Source of the DNA: Promethearchaeota archaeon
Lineage (GTDB): Archaea > Asgardarchaeota > Lokiarchaeia > Sigyniarchaeales > SOKP01
Direction: 5' to 3'
DNA length: 64,000 nt
Assembly: GCA_019894855.1 (NCBI GenBank)
Contig: JAGXNS010000003.1
Span: 10,024 to 74,023 of the forward strand
Positions 7,704 to 40,044 of the stretch are shown piece by piece. Each line of letters begins with the position of its first letter. Within the stretch, counting starts at the first letter, position 1. A model generated the notes under the pieces. The model was not told the origin of the DNA. It saw only the letters and a program-made list of their open reading frames with translations, and did no database searches. The position numbers and the translations under genes are program-made.

Positions 7704-8141
7704 ATGAAAAAAGCAGGATTTGAGTTTAGAGATCATACTGCCGATGTTCAGGTAAGAAGTTGGGGATCATCATTAGAAGAAGCCTTTTCGCAAACCGCTT
7801 ATAGTTTAATGGCGACAATAACGCCAAACTTAAAAAAAATAACTCCTAAAGTCGAAAGAGAACTAACTATCGAGGCTGAGGATAAAGAAGCCCTACTATT
7901 TGATTTTCTTTCTGAATTTTTATATATTTTTGATGTTGATGAGCTTATTTTTAATCAAATCTATGTGCGTTCAATTGAAAAGTTCAATGATAAATATAAG
8001 CTGCGTGCTACTCTAATAGGTGAAAAATTCGACTTAAATAAGCACGAAATAGGAATTGAAGTTAAAGCTATAACATATTCTTTCTTAAATATAGAAGAAA
8101 AACACGAAAGCACTATAATAGATATAGTATTCGATATTTAA
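7704..8141 (+). CDS. Archease (RtcB activator)
   Basis: The N-terminus FEFRDHTADVQVRSWGSSLEEAF and C-terminal VKAITYS are typical of archease. RtcB is the neighbouring gene. Confidence 0.9.
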   Translation: MKKAGFEFRDHTADVQVRSWGSSLEEAFSQTAYSLMATITPNLKKITPKVERELTIEAEDKEALLFDFLSEFLYIFDVDELIFNQIYVRSIEKFNDKYKLRATLIGEKFDLNKHEIGIEVKAITYSFLNIEEKHESTIIDIVFDI

Positions 8142-8293: not shown

Positions 8294-9766
8294 TTATCCT
8301 TTTACAACGCCAATTGGAACTAACCTCACAATTTTTTCTACAATACCTAGATCTTGGCTCACTTGGACTACCTGATCTATGTCTTTATATGCTCCAGGAG
8401 CTTCTTCCGCAATTATTTTAGGAGATGCAGCTCTTACGGTAATTCCTTTATTCCTTAGATCTTCCTTTATTTTAGCGCCCCAATATTGTTTTGTTGCCTT
8501 AGATCTTGACATCAAACGCCCAGATCCATGAGCTGTCGAACCAAAAGAGAGATCCATTGCTTTTGGTCTCCCAACACATAAATACGAAGCGGTTCCCATA
8601 GTTCCCGGAATTAAAACTGGTTGACCTATACTTTTATAATCACGGGGTATATCTGGATGCTCTGGTGGGAAGGCTCTAGTTGCGCCTTTTCTGTGGACGT
8701 TTAATTTCATTTTTTTCCCGTCAACATCATGTTCTTCTATCTTTAAGATATTATGACAAACACCATAAATTAATTTAAAATCCAGATCGTCCAAACTCCT
8801 TTTAAAATGTTTTTGGAAAGATTCTCTTAGCCAATGCGTTATTAACTGGCGATTAGTAAACCCAAAATTTGCAGCACAAGCCATACTTTTCAAGTATTGT
8901 ATTGCCTCCGGAGTATCGGCTGGTACACAAGCTAACTCGCGATCTGGTACTTTTATTTTGTATTTTCTCATTGCTTGCTCGACATTTCTAAGTGAATCCG
9001 TGCACACTTGATGACCAAGAGCCCGAGAACCAGTATGAACCATGATAGCTATTTGATCTTTATCAATGATTCCCAATTTCTTTGCCACTGACTCATTATA
9101 AATCTCATCAACCTTTTGTATTTCGAGAAAATGGTTACCGCTCCCTAAAGAGCCGAGTTGTTTTATTCCTCTTTGCTTTGCTTTTTGAGATACTAATATT
9201 GAATCAGCGTTTTTCAAAAAACCGTTTTCTTCGCAATGCTCTAAATCCTCTTTTATAGCATAATCATTATCTAATGCCCAATTTAAGCCGTTATCTAAAA
9301 CATCATCTAATTGCGAGGAATTGATGCTTAATTTTCCTTTACTTCCTAATCCGGATGGTATATTCTTAAAAATAGAGTCTAGTAAGTTAGGAATTGAACT
9401 TTCAATATCTTTAAGGTGAAGATTTGTTCTTAGAATTCTCACACCACAGTTTATATCGTATCCTACACCACCTGGGGAAACCATTCCAGAATAAGCGTCT
9501 GTTCCTGCTACACCCCCAATACAAAAACCATAACCTTGGTGTGCATCAGAGAGAACAATAGCGTGTTTTTGTATGCCGGGGAGACAAGCTACATTACTAA
9601 TTTGATCCAAAGTTCTATCGTTTTTAATTTTTTCTAAAATGTAATCGTTAGCATAAATATGGACTGGTACTTTCATTTGAAATTTTTCGATCTTTCCTTC
9701 TACTCGAGCCATTAAAGTTTTTTGAGGGATTTCGTAGATGTTTTCATCTATTTTATTCACATTCAT
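8294..9766 (-). CDS. rtcB: RNA-splicing ligase RtcB
   Basis: GVGYDINCGVR, GSGNHFLE, HTGSRALGH, HRKGATRA and STAHGSGR motifs. No intein-like insertion. Confidence 0.95.
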   Translation of the reverse strand: MNVNKIDENIYEIPQKTLMARVEGKIEKFQMKVPVHIYANDYILEKIKNDRTLDQISNVACLPGIQKHAIVLSDAHQGYGFCIGGVAGTDAYSGMVSPGGVGYDINCGVRILRTNLHLKDIESSIPNLLDSIFKNIPSGLGSKGKLSINSSQLDDVLDNGLNWALDNDYAIKEDLEHCEENGFLKNADSILVSQKAKQRGIKQLGSLGSGNHFLEIQKVDEIYNESVAKKLGIIDKDQIAIMVHTGSRALGHQVCTDSLRNVEQAMRKYKIKVPDRELACVPADTPEAIQYLKSMACAANFGFTNRQLITHWLRESFQKHFKRSLDDLDFKLIYGVCHNILKIEEHDVDGKKMKLNVHRKGATRAFPPEHPDIPRDYKSIGQPVLIPGTMGTASYLCVGRPKAMDLSFGSTAHGSGRLMSRSKATKQYWGAKIKEDLRNKGITVRAASPKIIAEEAPGAYKDIDQVVQVSQDLGIVEKIVRLVPIGVVKG

Positions 9767-20217: not shown

Positions 20218-20829
20218 TTAGAATTCAAGAAAGCCGGGGTCGTCAAAAATATCCTCGATTTTTTTTGCCCTCTTCATGTCACTCTCGTCATGCTCTGTAA
20301 ATAAAGAATCGTCATCTGTTTTAATTCCTTTCTCTAACTCAAGAGAGTCTAGTTGAAGTAAAGCATCCTTTTCTAACCTTTTATATTCTTCTGCTTTAAT
20401 TTTCCATTTATTAACTACATCAAGGTTGATATCGTCTTCATCTTCTAAGGCCTCAGCAGCTTTAGCTTTGCAAATATCCGATAAAATAGAATATACTAGA
20501 ACTAATTCCCCCCATTCATTTTTCTTTTTAAGTTTGCCTATGCGTTTTTCTAATCTCTGAAGTTCTTGATCCGCGTAATGAATATCGATAAAATCTCCAA
20601 AGGCATCAACGGGTTCTGATATAGAATTAATTAAAACATCCTTTGTTAAGCCACAATGACCACACTTCACTGTAGCAATTGCGCTTTTCCTAATATTCTT
20701 AACCTTGACAGATTTTTCACCGCAATCCATATTAAATGGGATAACCATTTAGTTATTTGGGCACGTGAAAATCTTTGGAACTCTCTTAACTCTTTTATAT
20801 GATTGTTGTTTACGTTTCCTTCTTCCCAT
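20218..20829 (-). CDS. elf1: Transcription elongation factor Elf1 homologue with an acidic C-terminal extension, interrupted by a 30-nt BHB mini-intron
   Basis: Exon 1 (20755-20829) encodes MGRRKRKQQSYKRVKRVPKIFTCPN. Exon 2 (20218-20724) encodes CGEKSVKVKNIRKSAIATVKCGHCGL...ISEPVDAFGDFID. Joined, they match the Elf1 zinc ribbon CPxC-x20-CxxC and the LSEPVDVY-like motif. Confidence 0.75.
20725..20754 (-). other. Putative bulge-helix-bulge mini-intron (30 nt) within elf1
   Basis: Sense RNA is UGC[CCAA](AUA)[ACUAAAUGG]UUAUC[CCAUUUAAU][AUGG](AUU)GCG, with two 3-nt bulges around a 4-position helix (3 pairs plus an A-A mismatch). It contains an in-frame UAA. Confidence 0.6.
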
Positions 20830-21216
20830 TATTCAAACACTAATTATTGTATATACTAATTAAGAAAAGCATAACAAAAAAGTTTTGTTACAATAATTTA
20901 TAGTAGGCATAAAAAACATTTTATTTCCTTGAGTTCTTAATTTGGGCCTCAATTTGTTTATTGGTCTTTTAGTTTAATGAGTTTTTTATTATGATTAATA
21001 TCTTTAAAATTCATTTTTCGATTAGTAAACTTATTTTCTTTTTTATTTACATAAAATTTTTTATTAAAAGAAAAAAGAGTTCTAAGAATTTTAGAAACAG
21101 TTTAGAGCCGAATTTTAGTATAAATCGAAAAATTTTTTAGGAATGATACCTTATTTCAATTACTCTTTTTCACTGAATTATCCTAGCAGTTTAAAAAAAA
21201 TGAGTGGATTTTAGGT

Positions 21217-22317
21217 ATGGAACATACGAATTTGTCATTAGAATATGATAAGAGCTTGATAGAAAGGGTTTTGGACGATCTCGATATGAGATACATTATT
21301 ATGTTTTTATATGTTATCAGAAATGACTTGTTTAAAGACTTAAAGGATTCAAAAATTATAGAATCCTATGAGAGAGTCATTATCTTAGACGAAATATTTA
21401 AAAATAACGTATTTAACTTATGGGAAGAAAATTTTATTGATATAGCGATCGATTTAGGCTTGTTTAAAAATATTCGTAGTATTAGAGAATTTAATCATAA
21501 TGATGGGGATTTTATAATACGATTAGGAGAAGAAACAATTACAATCGAGAACGACAAAATATCAGTTCCAGACCATACTCTTTTCTTAATGATAAATAAA
21601 AAATTTAAATTTCTTACAAGAAGAAATTATAATTTAGCATTGATTAAATTAAAGGGAGTCAAATGTCAGAATAGTAATCTTATTCATCCATTTATATCTC
21701 AAATAGGAGAAAACGATTACACAATATCCGATGATATATACTACATATTAGATCAATTTGGCAACGTTTATCAAGCAATCAAAATTGAGATCACAATCGA
21801 AGGGGTTCACCAGAAATTTTTAGATATAAAAGAAAAAATTAACGAGTATATAGATATCTTTGAACCAAAATTAAGGAGTAAACCCGTTTTAAAAAAAATT
21901 TTTGAAGCGATTAAGGGTGAGAAAGATGTTTTTAAATATCTGAGGGATGAAAAAATTGAACTTCCTGATAAGTTCAACTTTGATGAAGATACAGAGAGGA
22001 ACGAAATTGGCAACGATTGGCATTTTAGAGTGATGGCAATACTGAACGCTAGGTTTAGGATGGAACAACTCGACGAGAAAATATTAGAAACCAAAAAATA
22101 TTATTCTGGAAAAGACAAAAAGTTTAGTTATCTTGAATTTATTGAAAAAGTTTCATTTAACGAAGATAATATAGTAAACAAAATTCAAAATGTTCTACTT
22201 AAATTTAGAGAGGATTTAATAAAAATTAATAAAGAACTTGAAGTATTAACGAAGAAAGAATTAAAATTATTAAATTTAGATTATGAACGGTATTTAATTA
22301 CAAGAAGTGATGATTAA
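21217..22317 (+). CDS. Hypothetical protein (gene 1 of an 8-gene cluster)
   Basis: Long ORF with no recognisable motifs. Confidence 0.4.
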   Translation: MEHTNLSLEYDKSLIERVLDDLDMRYIIMFLYVIRNDLFKDLKDSKIIESYERVIILDEIFKNNVFNLWEENFIDIAIDLGLFKNIRSIREFNHNDGDFIIRLGEETITIENDKISVPDHTLFLMINKKFKFLTRRNYNLALIKLKGVKCQNSNLIHPFISQIGENDYTISDDIYYILDQFGNVYQAIKIEITIEGVHQKFLDIKEKINEYIDIFEPKLRSKPVLKKIFEAIKGEKDVFKYLRDEKIELPDKFNFDEDTERNEIGNDWHFRVMAILNARFRMEQLDEKILETKKYYSGKDKKFSYLEFIEKVSFNEDNIVNKIQNVLLKFREDLIKINKELEVLTKKELKLLNLDYERYLITRSDD

Positions 22318-22319
22318 AT

Positions 22320-23276
22320 TTGAAGTGTTCAGCGTGTAACATCGAAATGGAACCTTTGGTTTCTGGAATTTACCAATGTCCTCAATGTCGAAAAATTGTA
22401 AAAAAAAAAGACGAAAAAGCTGAACTTGAAGATATAAAAAAGGTAGAAAAAGGAAAATTTCTCGAAGGAGAATATTTTCATAATATCGCAAGTATAAATA
22501 AAAAATACGAAGTGTGCGAACAAGGTATTATAATAAGCAAAACTGAAACTCGTTTATTTGCTGCGTTAATCTGTCATAGTGCTTATTTAAGAGAAGAAAA
22601 ATACGTGAGACTCTCATGGTGGAAAAGTTTTCAGCATGCTGGCATGTTTAAAATCTATGAAAAAGATGTATTAAATAACCTAATAGTCACATTAGAAAAA
22701 ATTAATAAGGATTTTGACGATATTTGGACTTGGGGCGGAACATATGTAAAACAAGAACCTAAAACCAAAGATGCACTAGAGAAGGAAAAATACTTAGACT
22801 TAATAAAATTCAGGATTTTAGAACATCGAACTTGCCCAAAATGTCAAAAAAAAATGACAAAAAAGAAATCTCATTACGAATGTCAACATTGTGGTGAAAT
22901 AGTTATACTGGAGGGGTATAATCAACCAATTTTTAACATACAATCATCAGAGTTGGATTTGCGTTTTCAAACTAATTTCCCAATCAATTATTACTTACCA
23001 GTAAGCGGTATAACTGTGAAGTGGTTAATGGGGGAGTGGAAAGCACTAGCGGTTATTCACGCTAAAGATAATCCTAATAAGCGATGGCTAAGATTTTATT
23101 GGTGGATGCGAGACTTAAGCAGTCTATTAAAGTACGGGCAGAGAGAAATAGGTGAAGGAATCCAAATGGGCTGGAAAGCCCAAAAGGGCGTAGCGTCTCC
23201 TAATATTTATGATAAAAAACTTGTAACGCCATTAATCAATGCCTTAAAGAGAATAAAACAAGAGTTAAATTGGTGA
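22320..23276 (+). CDS. Hypothetical protein with an internally duplicated zinc-ribbon plus WW-motif module
   Basis: CSAC..CPQC then ..ALICHSAY..YVRLSWWKS. This is repeated as CPKC..CQHC then ..ALAVIHAK..WLRFYWWMR. Confidence 0.45.
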   Translation: MKCSACNIEMEPLVSGIYQCPQCRKIVKKKDEKAELEDIKKVEKGKFLEGEYFHNIASINKKYEVCEQGIIISKTETRLFAALICHSAYLREEKYVRLSWWKSFQHAGMFKIYEKDVLNNLIVTLEKINKDFDDIWTWGGTYVKQEPKTKDALEKEKYLDLIKFRILEHRTCPKCQKKMTKKKSHYECQHCGEIVILEGYNQPIFNIQSSELDLRFQTNFPINYYLPVSGITVKWLMGEWKALAVIHAKDNPNKRWLRFYWWMRDLSSLLKYGQREIGEGIQMGWKAQKGVASPNIYDKKLVTPLINALKRIKQELNW

Positions 23277-23301
23277 AACTGAAAAAAACCATACCATTAA
23301 G

Positions 23302-24450
23302 GTGAACAAAATGGAAAGAAATCAAGAAAGCACTTGGCATGAACTGCTTCAAGACTTCGAGAGGGGCTTAGAAAAAGCTATTGATGAACTCGAAAAACGA
23401 GATGTGGAAAACATACCTGGTGCAAAGGAAGCTTTAAAACAAAGGTTAAAGAATATGAAGCTTCATTTTCCTAAAAATAATGGTGAAATTTTCTTAAAAT
23501 CCATTGACGACAAAATTCAAAACGCGTTTTTCCCAAACACAAACGATTTTTCTGAAGCATTTCAAAAGATAATAAAATCTCGTACTCACGAACAGGATTT
23601 TATCATAAACGAGCTGTTAAACGGATTTGTGGCATCAAAAGCCAAAGCTGTTGCTACGGGAACTCAAGGACCTGTAATTGATAGAATGGTTGAAGCTTTT
23701 AGTAAAAGAAATGATTTTCATATTATTGATTATCAATTTTATGCTATGTTTGGAGACCCAAATAAGCCTCGACACTATATTAAAAGCCAACTTGAAGAGT
23801 TAGTTAAATTATTTGGTCTCGTGTCAAAAGAATTAATTATCGAAAAAGATGTTAGAAAAAGTGAAGAAAAAATATTCACTTTTTACACTTTTCCGGAAAA
23901 AATTATTAAAATACTTGAAAAGAAATATTTAATCCTAGACGAAAAACTAGGATATACGTACGTTTCTGAAGCATTTGATAGAAATGTATTCATATGTATG
24001 TTCTTAGCAAATGTGGCCATTAATAGGGATGATTTAGATAAGATTGGTGGATCTTATACATTGAATGGTATCTCAGCCATTTTTGCATTAATTCTGCTGT
24101 TAAGTTTTTTACCTAAATTATCAGTAGATGAAACAAACCCCATCCTTAACGATCCTAATTACGATGCAGATACTATGAGTGTAATACCTAAATCTTGGAT
24201 GATGAGACAAGTTTTAGAACCGTTGTTCGAACCTTTAATTAAAATCATTGCTTACAGATTAGGGGGCGGTTTATGGTTGTCTAAAATAATTGAATCAGAT
24301 ATTAATAAAAAAATCCATAATCAAATACGTTTTTTGATTAAAGATGTCAATAAATGGGTTCTCGGTCAACTCGTAAGAGTAGAAATACCAATTTTCGTAG
24401 AAATTTCGAATATATTCACAGAAATCATAGTGGGCTACGATGAAAGTTAA
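23302..24450 (+). CDS. Hypothetical protein
   Basis: Long ORF with one hydrophobic segment (ISAIFALILLLSFL). The likely start is ATG 23311. Confidence 0.4.
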   Translation: MNKMERNQESTWHELLQDFERGLEKAIDELEKRDVENIPGAKEALKQRLKNMKLHFPKNNGEIFLKSIDDKIQNAFFPNTNDFSEAFQKIIKSRTHEQDFIINELLNGFVASKAKAVATGTQGPVIDRMVEAFSKRNDFHIIDYQFYAMFGDPNKPRHYIKSQLEELVKLFGLVSKELIIEKDVRKSEEKIFTFYTFPEKIIKILEKKYLILDEKLGYTYVSEAFDRNVFICMFLANVAINRDDLDKIGGSYTLNGISAIFALILLLSFLPKLSVDETNPILNDPNYDADTMSVIPKSWMMRQVLEPLFEPLIKIIAYRLGGGLWLSKIIESDINKKIHNQIRFLIKDVNKWVLGQLVRVEIPIFVEISNIFTEIIVGYDES

Positions 24451-24467
24451 TAGCAATGATAAATTGA

Positions 24468-25784
24468 GTGAGAATTATGAGTTATAAAAAAAAATCGACA
24501 AGGAATGTTAGGCCTGGGAGAAAAAGGGAGAAATGGACCGATATCTTACCAAGGTACCTTACGTTTTTAACTCATATGCGCCCAATTCTAAGAGAAACAA
24601 GAAGGATAATAATTGATTTGGATGCTGACCTTCTTTTAGATACAGAAATTCTAGACAAAATCCGAGAAGAGGAAGAAAAACGAAACTTTAGAAAAGTGAG
24701 AGCTTTATCAGAATTTTCCGCAATGTACAGGTCAAACATATATGAAATTATTAAAGATTTCTTAGTTAAATATAGGAATCAAATACCTATTTTTGATATT
24801 AAAGATTATATTATTGAATTCTTATACGAATCAGTCGGGGCTCTCAATGTTTTGTTACACATCACTAATCCAGACGAAGCAAATTTAGAAAACACAATTT
24901 TATATGTTTTAGTTAAATTTATTGAAGAACGGCTCTTCCCGAGAGGTAGAAATTTAAGCATTATATATAGTAAATTATTAGGTTATTCTTCAGATTTGTA
25001 CGATTGTCAAAGACATATGCTCCAACCACATACTTATTATCGAGAAAAATTAGAATCCTCTGATTTGTTTGAAATTCCGGGAATTTCCCCTAAAGTTTAT
25101 AATATCATTAATAATATAACCTCACTCTTTAATTTGGATCCGAATTTCGGAGAATTCCCTGAAAGAGAAAATCAAGAACTGCCAATAATATTAAAATCTG
25201 AAGTATTCGATCCATATATTGATTCTATAGCAAATGCAGAAGAAGAAGCTATCGAACAAATTTCTGAACGATTCGGATTGCGAATAATAGACGGAATTTT
25301 TCTGGTTCCAAGAGAGGGCTTAGTAGATTTACTAACAGAAAATAATTTTTTACGAAAAAATTCACAATCAGATGGAAAAGTACGATTAATACCACAACTA
25401 AGCAATGAAAGCTTGTTTCTCTATTATTTAGCTTTCTCATCCCAGCGAAGAGGATTTTTATCGAAGGAATTAATAAATTGGATTTCAATGAATTTTGCTT
25501 TTTTGATTTATATGGGTATATTGAAGTGGAAATTGTCAGACCAAAACATTTTCTATCCTATCTTTAAGGATTTACAAACAAATGAGAAGATTTTACCTTA
25601 TTTGATGAAGCTTCTCTGTTTTCCCAACTATCTAGGTATTGATAAAATGAAAATACGTGATTCTCCGCAATACAGAAAAGAAATTTTTAACTTCATTGGT
25701 TCTCAAATCGATAACCTTAAAGATTTTATCTTAGAAATAGCAGAATTTTGTGAAAAATTTGATAAACAAAGAAAAAATAACTAA
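24468..25784 (+). CDS. Hypothetical protein
   Basis: Long ORF with a basic N-terminus (KKKSTRNVRPGRKREK). The likely start is ATG 24477. Confidence 0.4.
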   Translation: MRIMSYKKKSTRNVRPGRKREKWTDILPRYLTFLTHMRPILRETRRIIIDLDADLLLDTEILDKIREEEEKRNFRKVRALSEFSAMYRSNIYEIIKDFLVKYRNQIPIFDIKDYIIEFLYESVGALNVLLHITNPDEANLENTILYVLVKFIEERLFPRGRNLSIIYSKLLGYSSDLYDCQRHMLQPHTYYREKLESSDLFEIPGISPKVYNIINNITSLFNLDPNFGEFPERENQELPIILKSEVFDPYIDSIANAEEEAIEQISERFGLRIIDGIFLVPREGLVDLLTENNFLRKNSQSDGKVRLIPQLSNESLFLYYLAFSSQRRGFLSKELINWISMNFAFLIYMGILKWKLSDQNIFYPIFKDLQTNEKILPYLMKLLCFPNYLGIDKMKIRDSPQYRKEIFNFIGSQIDNLKDFILEIAEFCEKFDKQRKNN

Positions 25785-25809
25785 ATTAGAATAAAAAGAG
25801 AAGAGAAAA

Positions 25810-26919
25810 ATGAGCAATTCAAAAGAAGATGGAGGCAAGAACATAACTTTCACTGAAGATGTCATTAAAAATAGGTTAGGCAAATATGGCGCGGTGTATT
25901 TTCCTTCCACAATACAAGAATCAATCGATGATATTCTAGGTAATGAGAACAAAAAAGAAATTTTACACGATTTCTTTAAAGCTTTGAAGAAATACTATGA
26001 ATTTAGTAAACGATTAAAAGGTGCAAAACTCAACCCTAGTTTGACTGTTCTCTTGTATGGTCCTCCAGGTACAGGTAAAACTTCTCTTACGAGAGGGTTT
26101 GCAAAACATTACGATATTCCAATATGCGTAGTAGAAACGGATAGGTTAGTTTCTCCTTTGCTAGGAGATACGATAAAACAAATTAGGAATGTTGTGGATC
26201 TTGCGGCAGAAATAGCAAAGGAACGAGGTAATTTTATCCTATTCTTTGATGAAATAGATTCTATAGGCTCCGAAAGGTCAAATATTCATGAAGTAGGTGA
26301 GATCAAACGAGCTGTTATTTCATTTTTACAAGTAATTGATAGAATAAATTATGAAGGAGTACCCTTAGCAATATTTGGGGCTACAAATCATCAAAATCAA
26401 TTAGATTCAGCGATTTGGAGGCGGTTCACGTTTCACTTTAGCTTTGAATTCCCAGATTATCATCTGAGAAGAAAAATAATTGAATCGTTCCTTGCAAAAG
26501 TTAAAATTGCGAAAATTGGTGTTGATGACTCAATTTACTCAAATTTAACAGAAGAATACGAGAAGATTCAAAAGATACATAGTAATCTTTCACATAAACT
26601 AGGATATGAAATTTCCGAGTTTAGTGATACTCTACTTTGGGATGAAATTAATAAAAATAATAAAAACGAAGGATTGTTAGAGCTCACAATAGGATTTTCA
26701 GGCTCAGATATTGAAAGAGGAACAAAGGTTTCACTTTTAAAAGCTATTAACACAGAGCGATTAACTTACGATTTATTTTACAATTCTTTAAAATTAGTGG
26801 GAGGGACCGCTATGCATGTTGAAAGACAAGATAATTTAAGCGATTCAAAGAAAATTTTTTTAAAATCTTCGAAAAATAAGCAGGAAAAACGCAATATGAA
26901 AGGTCCTCCAGAGATCTAA
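25810..26919 (+). CDS. Classical-clade AAA ATPase (single AAA domain)
   Basis: Walker A LLYGPPGTGKTS, Walker B ILFFDEIDS, second region of homology GATNHQNQLDSAIWRRF. Confidence 0.85.
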   Translation: MSNSKEDGGKNITFTEDVIKNRLGKYGAVYFPSTIQESIDDILGNENKKEILHDFFKALKKYYEFSKRLKGAKLNPSLTVLLYGPPGTGKTSLTRGFAKHYDIPICVVETDRLVSPLLGDTIKQIRNVVDLAAEIAKERGNFILFFDEIDSIGSERSNIHEVGEIKRAVISFLQVIDRINYEGVPLAIFGATNHQNQLDSAIWRRFTFHFSFEFPDYHLRRKIIESFLAKVKIAKIGVDDSIYSNLTEEYEKIQKIHSNLSHKLGYEISEFSDTLLWDEINKNNKNEGLLELTIGFSGSDIERGTKVSLLKAINTERLTYDLFYNSLKLVGGTAMHVERQDNLSDSKKIFLKSSKNKQEKRNMKGPPEI

Positions 26920-26966
26920 TACATTTTTTTTAATTACTTAATAAAAGATTTAATTTACTTGATAAA

Positions 26967-28001
26967 ATGGAAACAGAACTATTTAACCTTGAAAAGATAA
27001 AGGGGCTAACCGCACCCATTAAAAATTTACAAGGAAAGGTCAACCAGGTATCAAACCTCGTAAAAAATTTAGAATCTGAGCAACAGATTGCTTCATTATA
27101 CGACGAAAACGATTCATTTTTAAAAGATTTCACACAATTAACTAAATTAGTAGAGAAAATCAACGATAATTTAAAGATTGTCTCAAACCACAACATTAAC
27201 AAATTTTTAAAGTTGAAAAACTATTTAATCAATAAATACAAGCAATCGATTAATGATAGACTGAAAATCATTGATTTGGACAATGACTATCTAACACAGA
27301 TTGGCCTTTCTTTAATTGAAAATAAAAAAATTAGTAAAATAATTGAAAAAATTAACCACGTTCCTTCTGTTAGCATTAAACAATGGCTTGATTTAATAGA
27401 TTCTTTAAATCAGAACACCCTTTTTCTAAAATCTGTTGACATTCTGAGAGAACACTATAAAATAAATTTACAGAACAAATTAAAAAAGGAACTGGCTAAA
27501 ATACCCTATAATGTAGAACCTTTCATAATCGAAGATTTTAAAAGACAGTTTCATATTACACCCGAGATAAACTACACTAAATTCATTCAATCGCTTGAAC
27601 ATAAACTGACTGAAGAAGAATTAAAATCGAAGAAAGAAATCTTGGAAAAAAACAAAAAAAGACAAGAAATTGAAGAACTAAAAAAACGACAAGAAGAGCA
27701 ATCAGAATCTTACGAGAGTTATTTAAAATTATCTAATAAAGAATTCAAAAGAATGTTGCGAAAACAGAAGCGTGAAAAATTAACTGACATTAATGATACG
27801 GAAAACGATAAAACATTTGAAATAACAGAAGAAATCTCTCAAAAAATCGAGATGTTTAAAAAACAAATGGATAAAAGATCTAATGAACATCACGTTACTC
27901 TCGGTGATTCCAGTGCAGACCCAATAGAATTAATTAAGGAAAGAAAAAGAAAAAGAAAAGAAGAATATGACAAATTTAAGGATCATTTTGAAAGTGATTA
28001 A
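26967..28001 (+). CDS. Coiled-coil, highly charged hypothetical protein
   Basis: K/E-rich helical repeats (KKRQEIEELKKRQEEQ, KERKRKRKEEYDKFK). Confidence 0.4.
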   Translation: METELFNLEKIKGLTAPIKNLQGKVNQVSNLVKNLESEQQIASLYDENDSFLKDFTQLTKLVEKINDNLKIVSNHNINKFLKLKNYLINKYKQSINDRLKIIDLDNDYLTQIGLSLIENKKISKIIEKINHVPSVSIKQWLDLIDSLNQNTLFLKSVDILREHYKINLQNKLKKELAKIPYNVEPFIIEDFKRQFHITPEINYTKFIQSLEHKLTEEELKSKKEILEKNKKRQEIEELKKRQEEQSESYESYLKLSNKEFKRMLRKQKREKLTDINDTENDKTFEITEEISQKIEMFKKQMDKRSNEHHVTLGDSSADPIELIKERKRKRKEEYDKFKDHFESD

Positions 28002-28014
28002 ATATTAAAGCGGA

Positions 28015-29640
28015 GTGATTCTACTCATTAATAAAAATAGGACCGAGATTAAAGTAGGGGAGGATAAGATTTTTATCGAAGATCAATTCACTTTGGTACA
28101 AGGAAAATTTAAGCTTAATCAACTCCACGAATACTATAGTGACGATTATCTTCAGATTCAAGAAAATCTGGATTTAATTCCAGTAGAGAAAATTATTAAT
28201 GTAATTTCAAACGAATCAAATAGTTTATCTGGTTTAACAAATTTTACGAAAATACTCAACCTCCTATCAGGTTATAGTAAGATCGTTGAAAATAATCTAG
28301 AAATCTACTTAAAATTTAGTAAAAATATAGAAATTTTGTATACCCTCTTTAAGTTAATTTATTTCTCAGCAAAAAAGAAAATCCTGTTTAAAGAGTTAGA
28401 ATTATCAAAAATTCGTAAATCTTCAAGCAATATCTTAGCGATTGTAGATTTAATGAAAAGTTTGACCGAATCTATAAATAATTATAAGGTGAAATTGTCC
28501 TACATCAAAGAAGATTATTTTCAACGTAAAAATCAAATTGATAAAATCAAGAAAGATCTAACAACTTGTAAAACCCTAATTCAAGAACAATCTCAAATTA
28601 AAAAAAATTGCTTTAATCAAATTAATAAAATTACTAGACAATTAGAAGGATCAAAAACAGAAAATGAAGATAATTCTTTTTTAAGTTTAGGTATTGAAAC
28701 AAATTTAACGAATTCAGAGAAGATTAGAGCCCTTCAAAAAAAAGCAAAAGATACTCAATATGAAAGTAACAAGATTAGACTAAGAGCAAAACAATCACAA
28801 GCAGAATTCGAGGAGCTATTACCAAATTATGAAATTTACCGAAATGATTATGAAGAAATTTTAGAAACCATAAACAAAGAAGAGAAAAGATTGAGGCAAG
28901 CTCAAAAGAATTATGAAAAGGAACTTAGAGAAAATGAAGAAATTCAATTTGGAAAGACTGAAGAGTTACTCTCACAACCTATTAGACCATATTTAGAGAT
29001 TGAACATGAAATACTAAAAGTTGAATCTGAACTGGATAATTTATCGTTTCCCACCAATTTAAAGAAGAAAAACTTTCTAAGTAATATGCCCTTAATGATA
29101 GAGAAGTTTAAAGAAATTGACGCTATCCTTAGAAATCACGATGAAAAAATAAATATTAACGCAAATGAAGAAGAAATCGAAGAATTTTTTGAACAGTTTC
29201 GTATTTTTGAGAATCTTATTAATGACATTGAAAATATTACGAATAAATTTCTAAAAACAATTCAACTCCAAGTACAATTTAACCTCGTTACAAACAAAAT
29301 GAACACTGCTTTCCTGATAAAGACGGATTTCGCAAGAAAATCCAAAATTCGAGTAAATTTTGAGAATTTAACTACTCCTGAAAAAATTTTTTTCATAATT
29401 AGTTTTTTTATCTCGTTCAAAGTTTTGTTAAATTCAAAAAATATTATTTTTTCAAATTTATTTATTCTTCCTATATATAATACTAAAGGTGGTTCAATAT
29501 TTAGAACCATCAGGAAAATTATACCATTATTTGAAACTGACGAAAATTTATCTGATGTGAGTATTATATTGCTTATGTCAAACTTAGAGTTGAAAAAAGA
29601 TATCGATAATTTGAAAATTATAAAAGTAAATGAGAGATGA
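28015..29640 (+). CDS. SMC/Rad50-like coiled-coil protein with degenerate ATPase head motifs
   Basis: The N-terminus FTLVQGKFKLNQL sits where Walker A (GxNGSGKS) would be. A central coiled coil of about 350 aa follows. The C-terminus NLTTPEKIFFIISFF..IIFSNLFILPIY sits where LSGGE and Walker B would be. Confidence 0.35.
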   Translation: MILLINKNRTEIKVGEDKIFIEDQFTLVQGKFKLNQLHEYYSDDYLQIQENLDLIPVEKIINVISNESNSLSGLTNFTKILNLLSGYSKIVENNLEIYLKFSKNIEILYTLFKLIYFSAKKKILFKELELSKIRKSSSNILAIVDLMKSLTESINNYKVKLSYIKEDYFQRKNQIDKIKKDLTTCKTLIQEQSQIKKNCFNQINKITRQLEGSKTENEDNSFLSLGIETNLTNSEKIRALQKKAKDTQYESNKIRLRAKQSQAEFEELLPNYEIYRNDYEEILETINKEEKRLRQAQKNYEKELRENEEIQFGKTEELLSQPIRPYLEIEHEILKVESELDNLSFPTNLKKKNFLSNMPLMIEKFKEIDAILRNHDEKININANEEEIEEFFEQFRIFENLINDIENITNKFLKTIQLQVQFNLVTNKMNTAFLIKTDFARKSKIRVNFENLTTPEKIFFIISFFISFKVLLNSKNIIFSNLFILPIYNTKGGSIFRTIRKIIPLFETDENLSDVSIILLMSNLELKKDIDNLKIIKVNER

Positions 29641-30161
29641 TGAGAGATCAAATGGAAGCTGTGAATTTTGAAGAAATAGTGAAAAATATTGCTAAAATTA
29701 TTCTAACAAGCCCCCAAAAAATGATTAGAGAAGAAGATCTCCTGATTTTAACTAAGAACTTGGATTTTGAGCAGGTGATAAACGCTGTTTATTCAAATTT
29801 AAAAAATGTAGGGTTTGAATTTATTAAATCGAAGTTCTTAGATCAAAATTATTACATTTTAACTTCTGAAGGAAAAGATGATAGAGTTACTCCATCACAA
29901 TACGGAACTCTCGTCCTAATCCTTGCGCTTAGCAAAGAATTGGATGATAATTTAGACATGGATGACCTAAAAGATATTTTTAAAGAAGTATGGAATACTG
30001 ATATGAAATTTTTAATCGAAAACGATTATTTAAGGAAAATCGAAGATCAAAATATATTAAAAATAACGCCATTAGGAAAAGCGCTATTAAAAAATATAAT
30101 TAAAGATATTGAATTAAAAAACCTATTGGAAGCCTTTAAAAGAAAAAAAGAAACAGCATAA
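29637..30161 (+). CDS. Tandem winged-helix protein (ScpB/KITE- or Vps25-like architecture)
   Basis: Two WH-like halves (IAKIILTSPQKMIREEDLL...NYYILTSE and YGTLVLILALSK...ILKITPLGKALL). ATGA overlap with the upstream SMC-like gene. Confidence 0.35.
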   Translation: MMRDQMEAVNFEEIVKNIAKIILTSPQKMIREEDLLILTKNLDFEQVINAVYSNLKNVGFEFIKSKFLDQNYYILTSEGKDDRVTPSQYGTLVLILALSKELDDNLDMDDLKDIFKEVWNTDMKFLIENDYLRKIEDQNILKITPLGKALLKNIIKDIELKNLLEAFKRKKETA

Positions 30162-36391: not shown

Positions 36392-37402
36392 ATGAATAGT
36401 TCTATAATTGAAAAAATTGACGATTTGTTAAAGAGTGCAAGTTTTGAGACATTTAGGATAGATAACTTTTGCAATAAAAAAAGTAAATTTTGTTTTGATT
36501 TACTCGTCAAGAAGAACGATCTTATATTTAGCGTGAAAGTTTTTACGAACATCGATAATATAAGTGCTGAAATTGTTAACGATATTAAATCATTGTCTAT
36601 GTTGCTAAAATCTAAACCTTTATTAATAGGTTTAAAAAATCGGTACAACGAATTAGAAGATAACACTATTTATATTAGAGACGAGCTACCATTCATTACT
36701 TTAGCGACTTTAGAAAACATAATTGAAAAAGATTTATATCCCTACATTCTGGCGAGAAGAGGCGGTGGTATAATGTTTTTAAACGGAAATGTTATGAAAT
36801 TCATTAGAGAAAAGCAGGAGATATCACGAAAAGAATTATCAGAGTTACTTGGTGTAACAAAACGTACCGTATGTGCTTACGAAAATGAAAGCATGCGACC
36901 TTCTGAAAAAGTCGCTAAAAAACTATCAAATATCCTAGAAAATAAAGATCTCTTTAGGAAAATTAATCTTTTTGAATGGAATATCAAATTTGAGATTGAT
37001 TGGAAAGAACCCCGAGAGTTCACTGCTCGAAATCCTTTTGAAACTCACCTTCAAGCAGTTTTAGACGACATTGGACTTTGTTCTTATTGGTACAAAAATA
37101 GCCCAATTCCGTTTAAATTATCCTTATATTCCAAAGTCTCTAATGATAATAAGGAAAAAAATGTGTATCCTCTTTTTTCGGGCGTTTCAGAAGAGGATAA
37201 AAAGATTAACGAACTTAGTCTTAATTGCTTGAATAAGTTCAATAAATTATTTCATGTAAATTCTCTCTTTATAGTAAATAACGACATTAAAATACCAGAT
37301 TCGTTAAGAAAAATAAAAGTTCCTATTGTTAAAATTAGAAATTTAGAAAAAATAGATGACGAAGAGGAATTTATTGACCTCGTACAAGAATCAGGAATTT
37401 AA
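36392..37402 (+). CDS. Archaeal HTH (XRE-type) regulator, COG1395-like
   Basis: Central REKQEISRKELSELLGVTKRTVCAYENE. Confidence 0.55.
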   Translation: MNSSIIEKIDDLLKSASFETFRIDNFCNKKSKFCFDLLVKKNDLIFSVKVFTNIDNISAEIVNDIKSLSMLLKSKPLLIGLKNRYNELEDNTIYIRDELPFITLATLENIIEKDLYPYILARRGGGIMFLNGNVMKFIREKQEISRKELSELLGVTKRTVCAYENESMRPSEKVAKKLSNILENKDLFRKINLFEWNIKFEIDWKEPREFTARNPFETHLQAVLDDIGLCSYWYKNSPIPFKLSLYSKVSNDNKEKNVYPLFSGVSEEDKKINELSLNCLNKFNKLFHVNSLFIVNNDIKIPDSLRKIKVPIVKIRNLEKIDDEEEFIDLVQESGI

Positions 37403-38072
37403 CCAAGGCGTTATTTGTGGCATTGACGAGGCGGGGAGAGGCCCCGTATTAGGACCAATGGTAATTTGTGGCGTGTGTTTTTTCGAAACTGAGTTAAAAT
37501 TGCTTGTTGATATAGGAGTTAAGGATTCAAAGAAATTATCACCCAAAAAACGGTCTGAGCTAGCTAAAATAATAAAGAAAAAATGTAAAAATTATAAAAC
37601 TATCGTAGTTTCGGCTCAAGAAATCGATGCGAGAGAAAAAAAAAGAATTACTTTGAATAGACTTGAAGAAATTAAGATGGCAGAAATAATCGAAGCGTTA
37701 AAGCCCAACGTTATTTATGTCGACGCTGCAGATGTGAACGAAGCAAGGTTTGGGAAATCTATCCAAAAACTTCTTAAATATTCGCCTACTAAAATAATAT
37801 CTAAACATAAAGCAGATGATTTATACCCGATCGTCTCAGCTAGCTCAATAATTGCAAAAGATACGAGAGATAGCATTATTGAAGAATTAAAAAAGAATTA
37901 CGGAGATTTTGGATCGGGATATCCCTCCGACACGCGATCTATAGAATTTCTGAGAAAATGGGTAATAGAAAAGAAAAAAGCTCCACTGATCGCTAGAAAA
38001 TCTTGGGAAACTACGAAAAAAATAATCAGCGAGGAACTATCTAACACTAAAATAACTGATTTTGTAAAATGA
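37356..38072 (+). CDS. rnhB: Ribonuclease HII
   Basis: GIDEAGRGPVLGPMV, DSKKLS, DAADV, SASSIIAKD. 47-nt overlap with the upstream gene, so the start is uncertain. Confidence 0.85.
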   Translation: MTKRNLLTSYKNQEFNQGVICGIDEAGRGPVLGPMVICGVCFFETELKLLVDIGVKDSKKLSPKKRSELAKIIKKKCKNYKTIVVSAQEIDAREKKRITLNRLEEIKMAEIIEALKPNVIYVDAADVNEARFGKSIQKLLKYSPTKIISKHKADDLYPIVSASSIIAKDTRDSIIEELKKNYGDFGSGYPSDTRSIEFLRKWVIEKKKAPLIARKSWETTKKIISEELSNTKITDFVK

Positions 38073-38111: not shown

Positions 38112-38870
38112 TTATTTTTGAACAGTTAAAATAATGTGATTTGCAGCGTATTTATGAATGTTTATGCTATCGATTATTACATAACCCGCTTTTTCAATAA
38201 TTTTTTTTTCTTGAATATAAATTTTTTCAGACTTTTCTACGCTGTCAATTGATTGAGATTTTATCGCGAGAATTAAAAATCCCTTATTTTTTAGATAATA
38301 ATTGCAATTTTCAATGGCTATTTGTGCTTGATTAGGTTGAGCGATGTCTTGATAGACTAGATCGATAGGAGTAAAAATAGATTTAGCATAACTTTCTGGA
38401 AAATTAGCATTACCTAATATTGGGATGATGTTCTTTCTCTTATCGGTGTTTTGAATCAATTGTCTCATACTACGTTCAGCAAATTCGACTCCGTAAATAA
38501 CTCCGTTGTAAACAATGTCCGAAAGATGAGAAATTGTAGTTCCAGAGGATGCTCCTAAATACAAGCAACTTAAATCTTTCGTCAAGAATTCCAACGAAGG
38601 CTTTTCCAATATCATCGCAGCTAATTTACTTCTAAAGGGATCCCATTCTCGATATTCCTCTCCTTTAAAAGTAATTAACCTCTCCCCATATACCTTATTG
38701 CCCGGAATTAAGTTTTTAGAATAAAGTTTTGGATTCTGTGGTAACCCCGAAATATAAACATTAGAAAATCTTGGATGGGTTCTTATGTTGATGTTGCTCA
38801 ATTTAACTTTACCACCTTTTTTTTTTACTTGTTTGTTTTTTATTCGATCTAATCTTAGTTTTGGGCTCAC
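38112..38870 (-). CDS. flpA: Fibrillarin-like rRNA/tRNA 2'-O-methyltransferase
   Basis: LYLGASSGTTISHLSDIV SAM motif. An alternative TTG start at 38801 would remove the overlap with nop5. Confidence 0.9.
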   Translation of the reverse strand: MSPKLRLDRIKNKQVKKKGGKVKLSNINIRTHPRFSNVYISGLPQNPKLYSKNLIPGNKVYGERLITFKGEEYREWDPFRSKLAAMILEKPSLEFLTKDLSCLYLGASSGTTISHLSDIVYNGVIYGVEFAERSMRQLIQNTDKRKNIIPILGNANFPESYAKSIFTPIDLVYQDIAQPNQAQIAIENCNYYLKNKGFLILAIKSQSIDSVEKSEKIYIQEKKIIEKAGYVIIDSINIHKYAANHIILTVQK

Positions 38871-40044
38871 TTCTTTTTAATGGAGGTTTAGGATATTTTT
38901 TCTCAATTTCCTGAATTTTATCGTTTATCACCTTTGAAAGCACATCGGCTACAAACTCTCCTCCAAAATAATCTACTTTTGCTGAAATGCCAATTTTTCC
39001 TGATATCACTCGAGATATTTTCCCTCTATTCCATGGTTTACTTCCCCGGATTAGGTTCCACTGAAAAATTAATCCATGTTTTGGGCGTTTTTCACCGGTT
39101 TTAAGGAACCTATATAAAGCCTTTTCAGCTCCCAATAGTTGAATTCTTGAAGCTGGCATGAATGCTAATCTTTTTAAACTTCCCGCTTTTGCTATTAATT
39201 TCGCTCCAATTAAACCTCCAACTAAAGCAAAAAGATTTGGAGCAATTTGTTCCATTACTAAATCTAAATGTACCTCTAATTCATGCGTAAAATCGTCCAA
39301 AGATAAAATTTTATTAGCGTATTTTTTAATTAAGCTAAGATCAATATCTGCTCCCATTGATTGGGAAGCTAAATTCTGCAGCATTTTAATTCTTGCTTCT
39401 TTAAAACCAAACTCTTGATCGATCTTATTATAGGTGAAATTATCACGGTTTCCTAAAACTGAGATGAGTTTTGCTATAAGGACATTATCTTCTATTATTT
39501 TATCAACTAGTTCTGGAAAATGTAAACCATACCATTCTCTCATGCGGCTTGAGAATAAACTTATTGATTTTTTAAGAATATCCAAAGTTTCTATGATTTG
39601 AACAACTTCTACATCTCCTTTACTTCCAAATTGACTAATTTGTTCTTTGATCAGTTGTTCTTCAACTTTCTTAAAGAAAGAGAGAATTTCGTCCCGTGTT
39701 TTCGTGATACCTATTTTTTTCAATTGATCACTCAAATTGAAGCGAAAATTTTTAAATTCTAAAGATAATTTTTCAAAAGAAGTGTTATATCCTAAATTCT
39801 GCATTGTTATGTCTTTTAGTTTTCTATTATCAAACACAAAATCATCAAAACCAGAAGTGTTTAATTCATTCATAAAGTCTAAATACTCTTCTGAGAGAGT
39901 ATCGCTATTTAATGAATTATAAAAATTTATTGATTTTTGAATGTCGTCTAAGAAATCTATATAATTAAGGAAATTTCCTCCATCATCAATAGCAAATATC
40001 CCTATTAAAGAGTCAATAATATAACATCTCATTATTCTATACAC
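38809..40044 (-). CDS. nop5: Nop5 (Nop56/58) C/D box sRNP protein
   Basis: The NOSIC/Nop domain (APNL..LVGGLIGAKLIAKAGSLKRLA, GAEKALFR-like LGAEKALYRF) and a KKxK tail. Confidence 0.9.
   Translation of the reverse strand: MYRIMRCYIIDSLIGIFAIDDGGNFLNYIDFLDDIQKSINFYNSLNSDTLSEEYLDFMNELNTSGFDDFVFDNRKLKDITMQNLGYNTSFEKLSLEFKNFRFNLSDQLKKIGITKTRDEILSFFKKVEEQLIKEQISQFGSKGDVEVVQIIETLDILKKSISLFSSRMREWYGLHFPELVDKIIEDNVLIAKLISVLGNRDNFTYNKIDQEFGFKEARIKMLQNLASQSMGADIDLSLIKKYANKILSLDDFTHELEVHLDLVMEQIAPNLFALVGGLIGAKLIAKAGSLKRLAFMPASRIQLLGAEKALYRFLKTGEKRPKHGLIFQWNLIRGSKPWNRGKISRVISGKIGISAKVDYFGGEFVADVLSKVINDKIQEIEKKYPKPPLKRSEPKTKIRSNKKQTSKKKRW

Follow-up and report, generated by a model that had tools for sequence, protein, structure and literature searches.

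The question that this locus raises is how a gene for Elf1, a transcription elongation factor shared with eukaryotes, can be expressed when a stop codon interrupts its reading frame within the first zinc knuckle. The window, by which we mean the whole stretch of 64,000 nucleotides that was analyzed (Promethearchaeota archaeon, contig JAGXNS010000003.1), is archaeal DNA of 31% G+C with about 60 genes. On its minus strand lies an annotated open reading frame (ORF), 20218..20748, of 176 amino acids, identical to MBY8978977.1, a "hypothetical protein" whose record derives from an 81-kb contig of a Candidatus Lokiarchaeota metagenome-assembled genome (MAG). Upstream of it lies an ORF of 26 amino acids (20749..20829, minus strand), which begins with ATG at 20829, encodes MGRRKRKQQSYKRVKRVPKIFTCPNN, and ends in TAA; the 176-amino-acid ORF begins directly after that TAA and in the same frame (MVIPFNMDCGEKSVKV...). 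The minus-strand RNA reads UUC ACG UGC CCA AAU, then AAC UAA AUG GUU AUC CCA UUU AAU AUG GAU, then UGC GGU GAA, and the 30-nt middle part holds the in-frame stop (UAA at 20749..20751). We consider it very likely that an archaeal bulge-helix-bulge (BHB) intron of 30 nt splits the Elf1 gene here, between codons 25 and 26 and within the first zinc knuckle (CxxC). The initial annotation of this DNA had placed the 30-nt insert at 20725..20754, with an upstream in-frame ATG, a TAA, and the ORF around it, and all of these are present.

The predicted gene consists of exon 1 (20755..20829, minus strand), with 25 codons (MGRRKRKQQSYKRVKRVPKIFTCPN) for the basic N terminus and the first cysteine of the first zinc knuckle; the BHB-type mini-intron (20725..20754, minus strand; AACUAAAUGGUUAUCCCAUUUAAUAUGGAU), which is missing from the related locus L052 with identical flanks; and exon 2 including the stop codon (20218..20724, minus strand), which encodes CGEKSVKV...CGHCG...SEPVDAF followed by a C-terminal extension of about 115 amino acids of the Lokiarchaeia type. 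Excision of exactly 30 nt leads to a protein of 193 amino acids containing KIFTCPNCGEKSV. The predicted joined-exon sequence is UGCCCAAAU followed by UGCGGUGAA, with a junction in which CCAAAU meets UGCGG, and because the dinucleotide AU is repeated at both insert borders, three placements of the cuts give one identical product.

The identification of the product as Elf1, proposed in the initial annotation, was examined with the Pfam profile PF05129 (Elf1; gathering cutoff, 29.8 bits; profile length, 79). The 193-amino-acid version with the 30 nt removed scored 67.8 bits over profile positions 1 to 76 of 79. A version in which the stop is read through scored 47.4 bits over the same positions (1 to 76 of 79), with a 10-residue insertion, and the annotated 176-amino-acid ORF alone scored 39.5 bits over positions 28 to 76. 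The profile comparison thus favors excision. The spliced product also aligned end to end, from residue 1, with yeast Elf1 from solved RNA polymerase II elongation complexes (8tvy_O and others). In that alignment C23/C26 and C46/C49 are in register with the yeast Elf1 cysteines, and MGRRKRK stands opposite MGKRKKS of 8tvy_O; orthologs do carry the first CxxC, and both zinc knuckles are included in the match. The C4 zinc ribbon (CxxC ... CxxC) with its basic N terminus is present only once the 30 nt are removed. From its membership in the Elf1 family, the 193-amino-acid protein is predicted to bind RNA polymerase and to act in elongation. Among the PDB matches, the Elf1 chains from yeast and human have lengths of only 64 to 145 residues. 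The C-terminal extension of the Lokiarchaeial Elf1 (20218..20560, minus strand) is conserved, acidic, and coiled-coil-like, ends in ...IFDDPGFLEF, and gave no Pfam match.

Relatives of the locus show what the gene looks like with and without the insert. The census of DNA drew on one genome per species plus metagenome contigs and contained 111 Lokiarchaeial loci with a readable junction (handles of the form L### denote relatives fetched for comparison), and the protein search covered 5.8 billion proteins. The insert is absent from 62 of the 111 loci, all of which encode the predicted junction, many of them in proteins of exactly 193 amino acids. Close relatives do have insert-free alleles of this length with the predicted CPNCGEKS at the junction, and the claim that excision restores CxxC agrees with the CPNC junction of these 62 natural alleles. 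Many 193-amino-acid proteins from Lokiarchaeota/Promethearchaeota, 79 to 94% identical and reading ...KIFTCPNCGEKSVKV..., again the predicted junction, were likewise returned by the protein search, together with a set of 176-amino-acid proteins starting with MD[TIV]PFNMDCGEKS, which represent the same truncation in other genomes. In L052, which has diverged from the window by 8% in coding DNA, the insert is lacking and the flanks are identical (...TGCCCAAAT followed directly by TGCGGTGAAAAATCT), so that the borders of the insert are fixed to within the 2-nt repeat.

The remaining 49 loci bear an insert, in every case at the boundary of codon 25 and codon 26. Its length is 30 nt in 32 loci, 32 nt in 16, and 28 nt in a single one (L020). 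Four sequence families can be distinguished: the window type (30 nt, with L020 as a 28-nt derivative), a related 32-nt type (L024 and others), and two divergent families represented by L034 (30 nt) and by L106 and L108 (32 nt). Because an insert of 28 or 32 nt changes the reading frame, translation through it cannot give Elf1. The L034 allele has two in-frame stops and an exon 2 without a start codon, which rules out separate expression in that allele, and in L020 the AUG inside the intron is out of frame. When the loci were ordered by neighbor joining, each intron type was restricted to its own clade, and insert-free alleles (L052, L062, L053, L054, L072, and L011) were nested among the insert-bearing ones; this nesting indicates repeated precise loss, or gain.

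Two sets of loci in the census have unusual records. L106 and L108 (contigs SDBV01004505.1 and SDBT01007600.1) have ATA at the place where every other locus has ATG, GTG, or TTG as its start (ATAGGTCGACGT...), and either the start codon is unusual or the true start lies elsewhere. The L005 contig (DATKTW010000134.1) holds a typical Lokiarchaeial insert-bearing Elf1 and is labeled "Candidatus Nanopelagicaceae bacterium," as is the protein P0137, an RtcB ligase in the same cluster as the RtcB encoded in the window. The source of both looks like a mis-binned or mislabeled MAG.

The fold of the insert and its flanks was analyzed on the minus-strand RNA. The minimum free energy (MFE) structure contains an outer helix between the two exons, a 3-nt AUU bulge, a CCA/UGG central helix, and a 7-bp hairpin. 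In both MFE and constrained folds the outer helix pairs exon with exon through 13 pairs and has two single-nucleotide bulges; its 5' strand (20761..20774) consists of AGAUUUUCAC, a bulged G, and then UGC, and its 3' strand (20710..20723) consists of GCG GUG, a bulged A, and then AAAAUCU. The central helix is formed by CCAA (20757..20760) and AUGG (20727..20730), with the pairs C-G, C-G, and A-U plus an A.A mismatch, and the inner hairpin (20731..20753) has a 7-bp core, UAAAUGG/CCAUUUA, with the loop UUAUC. The 3' bulge, AUU (20724..20726), has the canonical 3 nt, with cleavage predicted between 20725 and 20724. The MFE structure, the centroid, and the RNAalifold consensus all leave it unpaired, and its sequence is AUU in 30 of 33 distinct variants. 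The nominal 5' bulge, AUA (20754..20756), with the predicted cut between 20755 and 20754, forms part of a relaxed internal loop in the window. A conformer compatible with the BHB motif lies 0.6 kcal/mol above the MFE.

This structure agrees in most respects with the one first proposed. The central CCA/UGG helix with its A.A mismatch, the AUU bulge, and the hairpin core with the UUAUC loop are all present. The outer helix had been described as 3 bp of UGC/GCG; those pairs are there, but the length is not 3 bp, as 10 further exon-exon pairs follow after the bulged G (AGAUUUUCAC with GUG.AAAAUCU). A clean 3-nt AUA bulge on the 5' side, which had also been proposed, does not appear in the MFE structure, where the 5' site lies within an internal loop. 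The strict version of the motif, a 4-bp central helix between two 3-nt bulges, occurs in L020, in L069, and, among the 32-nt inserts, in the main family (L024 type). At the fourth central position, alleles with 28 or 32 nt have the pair A-U, and most of those with 30 nt have A.A. In all 28-, 30-, and 32-nt variants, a cut behind the second nucleotide of the bulge gives an in-frame CPxC product. Applied to the window, the same rule joins UGC CCA AAU to UGC GGU and yields CPNCG; it removes 30 nt in frame, as had been claimed, and the resulting junction equals that of the natural insert-free alleles.

Comparison of relatives provided evidence that these helices are maintained. Over 25 distinct sequences, 88.3% of cells pair, versus 35 to 47% in slid controls; the figures for the outer helix and the inner hairpin are 92.9% and 85.3% of cells, respectively. 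Compensatory changes, altering both sides of a pair, were seen in 6 of 26 pairs, a number that was reached by 0 of 500 shuffles, and slid controls had 0 to 3 such pairs. The changes include those from G-C to C-G and from A-U to G-C or C-G in the hairpin and from A-U to G-C in the central helix, the third pair of which is seen as A-U, G-C, and G-U. RNAalifold independently recovered the outer helix, the AUU bulge, a 3-bp central helix, and the hairpin tip. The fold itself has a z-score of -2.64, with 4 of 200 shuffles folding equally well. Approximately 2e-6 of (position, length) pairs satisfy BHB criteria tailored to this site, and the junction defined by the homologs falls on the BHB cut sites; the probability of this coincidence by chance is therefore on the order of 1e-5. 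What stands above chance is the coincidence at the junction and the evolutionary evidence, and the fold alone is unremarkable. Looser structure-only BHB scans of the window for further introns gave hundreds to thousands of matches and were uninformative. A sequence search with the hairpin core and a covariance model of the Elf1 intron, run over the window, returned the Elf1 site only, and the insert is thus not a repeated element within the window.

Both the exons and the insert bear marks of selection. Among insert-bearing genomes the spliced coding sequence has a ratio of nonsynonymous to synonymous divergence (dN/dS) of 0.02 to 0.08 at a dS of 0.6 to 2.3, a level close to saturation of the synonymous sites. 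For exon 1 by itself, dN is 0.02 to 0.07 versus a dS of 0.6 to 1.2, and the 35 distinct DNA sequences of this exon among 48 insert-bearing alleles differ almost only synonymously. The 25 nonloop nucleotides of the intron diverge 4 to 8 times more slowly than the 4-fold degenerate sites of the same gene, and its 5-nt loop diverges at an approximately neutral rate. The duplex between the exons is more stable in insert-bearing alleles, at -9.8 kcal/mol versus -6.6 kcal/mol in insert-free ones (Mann-Whitney P = 8e-4, not corrected for phylogeny). Synonymous codons are also more uniform in the presence of the insert; Ile20, for example, is ATT in 17 of 17 insert-bearing contexts versus 27 of 49 insert-free contexts.

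Public annotation implies a different reading of the locus, namely, that the gene is split and that the 26-residue peptide and the 176-amino-acid ORF, or the latter alone, are the real products. Gene callers do annotate a 176-amino-acid "hypothetical protein" here (MBY8978977.1) and in many similar clusters. Such a product, however, would be without one of the four zinc ligands and without the whole basic N terminus, two features that each have a counterpart in the alignment with yeast Elf1. Purifying selection on exon 1 is strong, the exon invariably closes with ...CPx, no Shine-Dalgarno-like sequence was seen before the AUG at 20748, and the alleles of L034 (no start codon for exon 2) and L020 (intron AUG out of frame) do not fit, which together make separate products very improbable. 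Handling of the insert during translation, by stop read-through, frameshifting, or a bypass in the style of T4 gene 60, would also dispense with splicing, and the locus is superficially like gene 60 in having a stop soon after the take-off region, a hairpin, and a short gap. Read-through would bring 10 residues into the CxxC knuckle, however, and is impossible in the 28- and 32-nt alleles. For a bypass, the take-off codon (AAU or AAC) is unmatched with the GAU before exon 2, no matched pair is conserved, and the gap varies from 28 to 32 nt; moreover, the covarying central and outer helices set the borders in a BHB geometry for which a bypass has no need. We regard translational handling as extremely improbable. 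The in-frame stop and the truncated annotation would suit a decaying pseudogene broken by a small palindromic insertion, and the insert is indeed an imperfect palindrome between 2-nt direct repeats (AU), like some insertion footprints. Yet it persists across synonymously saturated lineages in which both exons have dN/dS values of 0.02 to 0.08 and intact frames, it is itself under purifying selection, and 49 independent loci, sampled from many sources, carry it. Selection on the exons and the intron together excludes a pseudogene, to which we accord next to no probability, and indicates that the RNA element itself is maintained. The possibility of an assembly artifact was discarded, as it is contradicted by the same 49 independent loci.

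Several observations weigh against a BHB intron and have to be set beside this evidence. Splicing of the insert is what we infer from comparative sequence evidence. In most alleles an in-frame AUG, GUG, or UUG directly precedes exon 2, which is a point in favor of the split gene and leaves separate translation of exon 2 some probability in those lineages. The window and most 30-nt alleles have A.A as the fourth central pair and weak first inner pairs, which makes the 5' site a loop and not a 3-nt bulge; the MFE structure puts its 3-nt bulge (AAC) two bases further 3', and cleavage at that point would take out 28 nt and lose the frame. A scan tailored to the geometry found 12 sites in the window, versus 11 to 19 in random sequences of the same composition, and structure alone therefore cannot pick out such introns in DNA of 31% G+C. 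The covariation and exon-pairing statistics allow only partly for shared ancestry. Finally, the splicing endonuclease EndA was not found among the ORFs of the window, and for this reason its presence in the genome rests on the literature. The departure of the 5' site in the window from a canonical bulge could also be taken as a sign that the insert is removed from the RNA by other means than EndA and RtcB, either by an unknown pair of nuclease and ligase or by self-cleavage. Against this, the strict BHB geometry in several alleles gives exactly in-frame cut sites, no Rfam family reached its threshold in any part of the window, group I and group II introns are far longer than 30 nt, and the known machinery is present (RtcB and Archease in the window; Asgard EndA according to PMC5829648). 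We consider removal by other means improbable and return to the BHB intron as the preferred reading. Judged from the fold models, the window has the relaxed form of the BHB motif, with a canonical 3' bulge and a loop-like 5' site, and it fits the relaxed forms described in PMC5829648.

The machinery for such a reaction is partly encoded nearby. An RtcB RNA ligase is encoded at 8294..9766 on the minus strand (Pfam PF01139, 564 bits; public record, RtcB family protein), and Archease, a known RtcB cofactor, is encoded at 7704..8141 on the plus strand (Pfam PF01951, 144 bits). The two genes are adjacent and convergent, with their 3' ends facing, and lie 11 to 13 kb from the Elf1 intron. RtcB, with Archease, would presumably act in trans as the joiner of the Elf1 exons. 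Asgard archaea have an (alpha-beta)2 EndA with an L1 loop, and enzymes of this type cleave relaxed BHB motifs (PMC5829648), and in some Asgard genomes introns occur in 92 to 95% of tRNA genes (PMC11291895). ARAGORN found no tRNA genes in the window. Upstream of Elf1, an A/T-rich TATA-like element (20850..20863, minus strand; UUAAUUAGUAUAUA) lies about 24 nt before the exon-1 ATG and is kept in close relatives; it may be the promoter of a leaderless or short-leader transcript. A scan for sigma-70 promoters and terminators was set aside as not applicable to archaea.

From these elements the following course of events can be proposed. Transcription would start from the TATA-like element upstream of the ATG at 20829. 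In the transcript, exon 1 (AGAUUUUCAC.UGC) would pair with exon 2 (GCGGUG.AAAAUCU) while the intron forms its own hairpin, a fold that would place the splice sites on opposite strands with about 4 bp between them. By analogy with archaeal tRNA and cbf5 splicing, EndA would cut between 20755 and 20754 and between 20725 and 20724, RtcB and Archease would ligate the exons, and the 30-nt intron would be released, probably in circular form. The spliced mRNA would then be translated into the 193-amino-acid Elf1 with an intact C4 zinc ribbon. Unspliced RNA would give only the 26-residue peptide, because the in-frame UAA stands two codons into the intron.

A second gene of the window has a similar interruption. 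An alpha/beta hydrolase (Abhydrolase_11/Hydrolase_4), found while listing open frames between longer ORFs, is annotated in truncated form at 53936..54442 (minus strand). The frame that starts with the ATG at 54607 reads ...CVALMCHPHPQFLWV, then TAA, and then IPRKGKYGGDMYNNVV... in frame. Removal of 54456..54488 (minus strand), a 33-nt insert with the in-frame TAA, by the BHB rule would join exons 54489..54607 and 53936..54455 and give a product of 212 amino acids with HPHPQYGGDM; 110 full-length homologs, mostly of 212 amino acids, read HPHPQ[YF]GG[ND]M. The same insert is present in the closest relatives, which are annotated as ORFs of 169 amino acids; a 44-amino-acid ORF was called just upstream in three of the four loci that were fetched, and one locus (L129) has a 32-nt version. 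In the RNA fold, an outer helix of 6 bp is followed by an internal loop in which CCACA faces AAGU, a 4-bp UCCU/GGGA helix, a CAA bulge, and an inner helix. In this motif the 5' side, with the 3-nt CAA bulge and the 4-bp helix, is canonical, and the 3' site is a relaxed internal loop. The Pfam score does not discriminate here (34.4 bits spliced versus 33.0 bits unspliced); the length of the homologs and the motif do. Because an alternative rod-like fold has a similar energy, the cut sites are less certain than those of Elf1, and homologs cannot choose between a QY and a QF junction, since both occur (72 versus 32). This insert is probably a second BHB-type mini-intron, 34 kb from that of Elf1, and probably the other case of the same geometry to which the initial annotation alluded. 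With two introns in about 60 genes, such interruptions do not seem to be rare in this lineage.

Further candidates in the window proved to be ordinary. The pair at 38112..40044 (minus strand), considered as a split gene, encodes Nop5 and fibrillarin (box C/D ribonucleoprotein core), which are ordinary neighbors; their longest ORFs overlap by 62 nt solely as a result of upstream alternative start codons. Another such pair, at 36392..38072, consists of adjacent genes for a helix-turn-helix protein and RNase HII. Ribosomal protein L2 (47251..47988), which had been suspected of having lost an N-terminal domain, reads through intact. A run of eight closely spaced ORFs of 174 to 541 amino acids on the plus strand (21217..30161) may be an uncharacterized operon; for seven of them Pfam gave nothing apart from one AAA ATPase (25810..26919) and a double zinc ribbon (22320..23276).

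The Elf1 locus bears on how proteins of this lineage are recorded. Dozens of public protein clusters (P0053, P0055, P0067, P0119, and others), mostly from Lokiarchaeota/Promethearchaeota MAGs, hold the 176-amino-acid Elf1 fragment; one of these clusters has 85 members, and the callers started at the ATG inside the intron. The true product behind these records is probably the 193-amino-acid Elf1. The series from strict to relaxed BHB motifs and from 28 to 32 nt at one site also constitutes a natural experiment on the substrate rules of the Asgard endonuclease, and the second intron only 34 kb away makes it worth asking how widely such introns occur across the genomes of Asgard archaea. As a tentative generalization, possible but rather doubtful on present evidence, BHB mini-introns may be common and still turning over in the protein-coding genes of Lokiarchaeia. 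If that were so, extrapolation from two in about 60 genes would give tens to more than 100 introns per genome, there would be precise gains or losses between close relatives and differing families at one site, and expression of the host genes would depend on the tRNA-splicing machinery. In the lineage of archaea most closely related to eukaryotes, splicing of mRNA by protein enzymes would then be a routine process, and part of the Asgard proteins that databases list as "truncated" or "hypothetical" would be annotation artifacts.

Introns that enzymes splice out of coding sequences are known from very few archaeal cases, to which the Elf1 intron would add a new gene, with unusually rich comparative support, and a new lineage. 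Elf1 would then be no more than the second gene of archaea in which an intron of this kind is known within the coding sequence. In the full-text literature, a scope that leaves out most subscription journals, we found no report of an Elf1 intron or of mRNA BHB introns in Asgard archaea. The available text of a 2020 paper speaks of "one mRNA" with a BHB motif, to which it adds the HVO_1309 mRNA of Haloferax volcanii (PMC7714728), and that of a 2023 review gives the count as two or more genes in archaea, cbf5 and HVO_1309, with more expected (PMC10485636). The HVO_1309 mRNA is cleaved by EndA, according to the portions of these sources at hand (PMC7714728; PMC10485636). It resembles the Elf1 mRNA as a substrate of the tRNA splicing endonuclease and is the only other archaeal mRNA case, besides cbf5, in the available part of PMC10485636. 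As far as the same text goes, HVO_1309 is a different gene, from Euryarchaeota with an alpha2-type endonuclease, and it comes there with no set of alleles, with and without the intron, for comparison, whereas Elf1 has one.

BHB introns are otherwise features of archaeal tRNA and rRNA, for which Marck and Grosjean reportedly described noncanonical BHB forms, including hBH, HBh', and BHL, in 2003. The Elf1 insert shares with tRNA and rRNA introns the outer helix, the 4-bp helix, the opposite bulges, and cuts after the second bulge nucleotide. It is like the HBh' and BHL substrates in having one canonical and one relaxed site, and the same enzymes are expected to act on it (PMC5829648). It differs in that the substrate is an mRNA, with its outer helix in coding sequence and a product constrained by frame, and in that the unspliced RNA can be translated up to the in-frame stop. 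In eukaryotes, HAC1 and XBP1 mRNAs are spliced by IRE1 and a tRNA ligase, which is RtcB in metazoa. There too a short mRNA intron is cut by a protein endonuclease at stem-loops, a tRNA ligase joins the exons, and the protein outcome changes; the nuclease, however, is IRE1, with another recognition motif, and the reaction serves a regulated stress response.

The closest precedent of the Elf1 intron is the crenarchaeal cbf5 intron. Watanabe et al. are said to have reported the BHB intron of cbf5 pre-mRNA in Crenarchaeota in 2002. Its splicing has been shown experimentally, whereas the Elf1 intron is known here by comparison of sequences. In Desulfurococcales and Sulfolobales the cbf5 intron measures 33 to 39 nt in several species and has a relaxed BHB motif (PMC2738675, Yokobori et al. 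2009). Both introns are short, lie within coding sequence, have a relaxed BHB, and occur in hosts with an (alpha-beta)2 endonuclease; both are patchily present, have undergone lineage-specific precise loss, and are routinely missed by gene callers. They differ in their host genes and lineages, since cbf5 encodes a pseudouridine synthase in Thermoproteota and the present gene encodes Elf1 in Asgard archaea of the Lokiarchaeia, and the Elf1 site is distinguished by its four sequence families of 28 to 32 nt.

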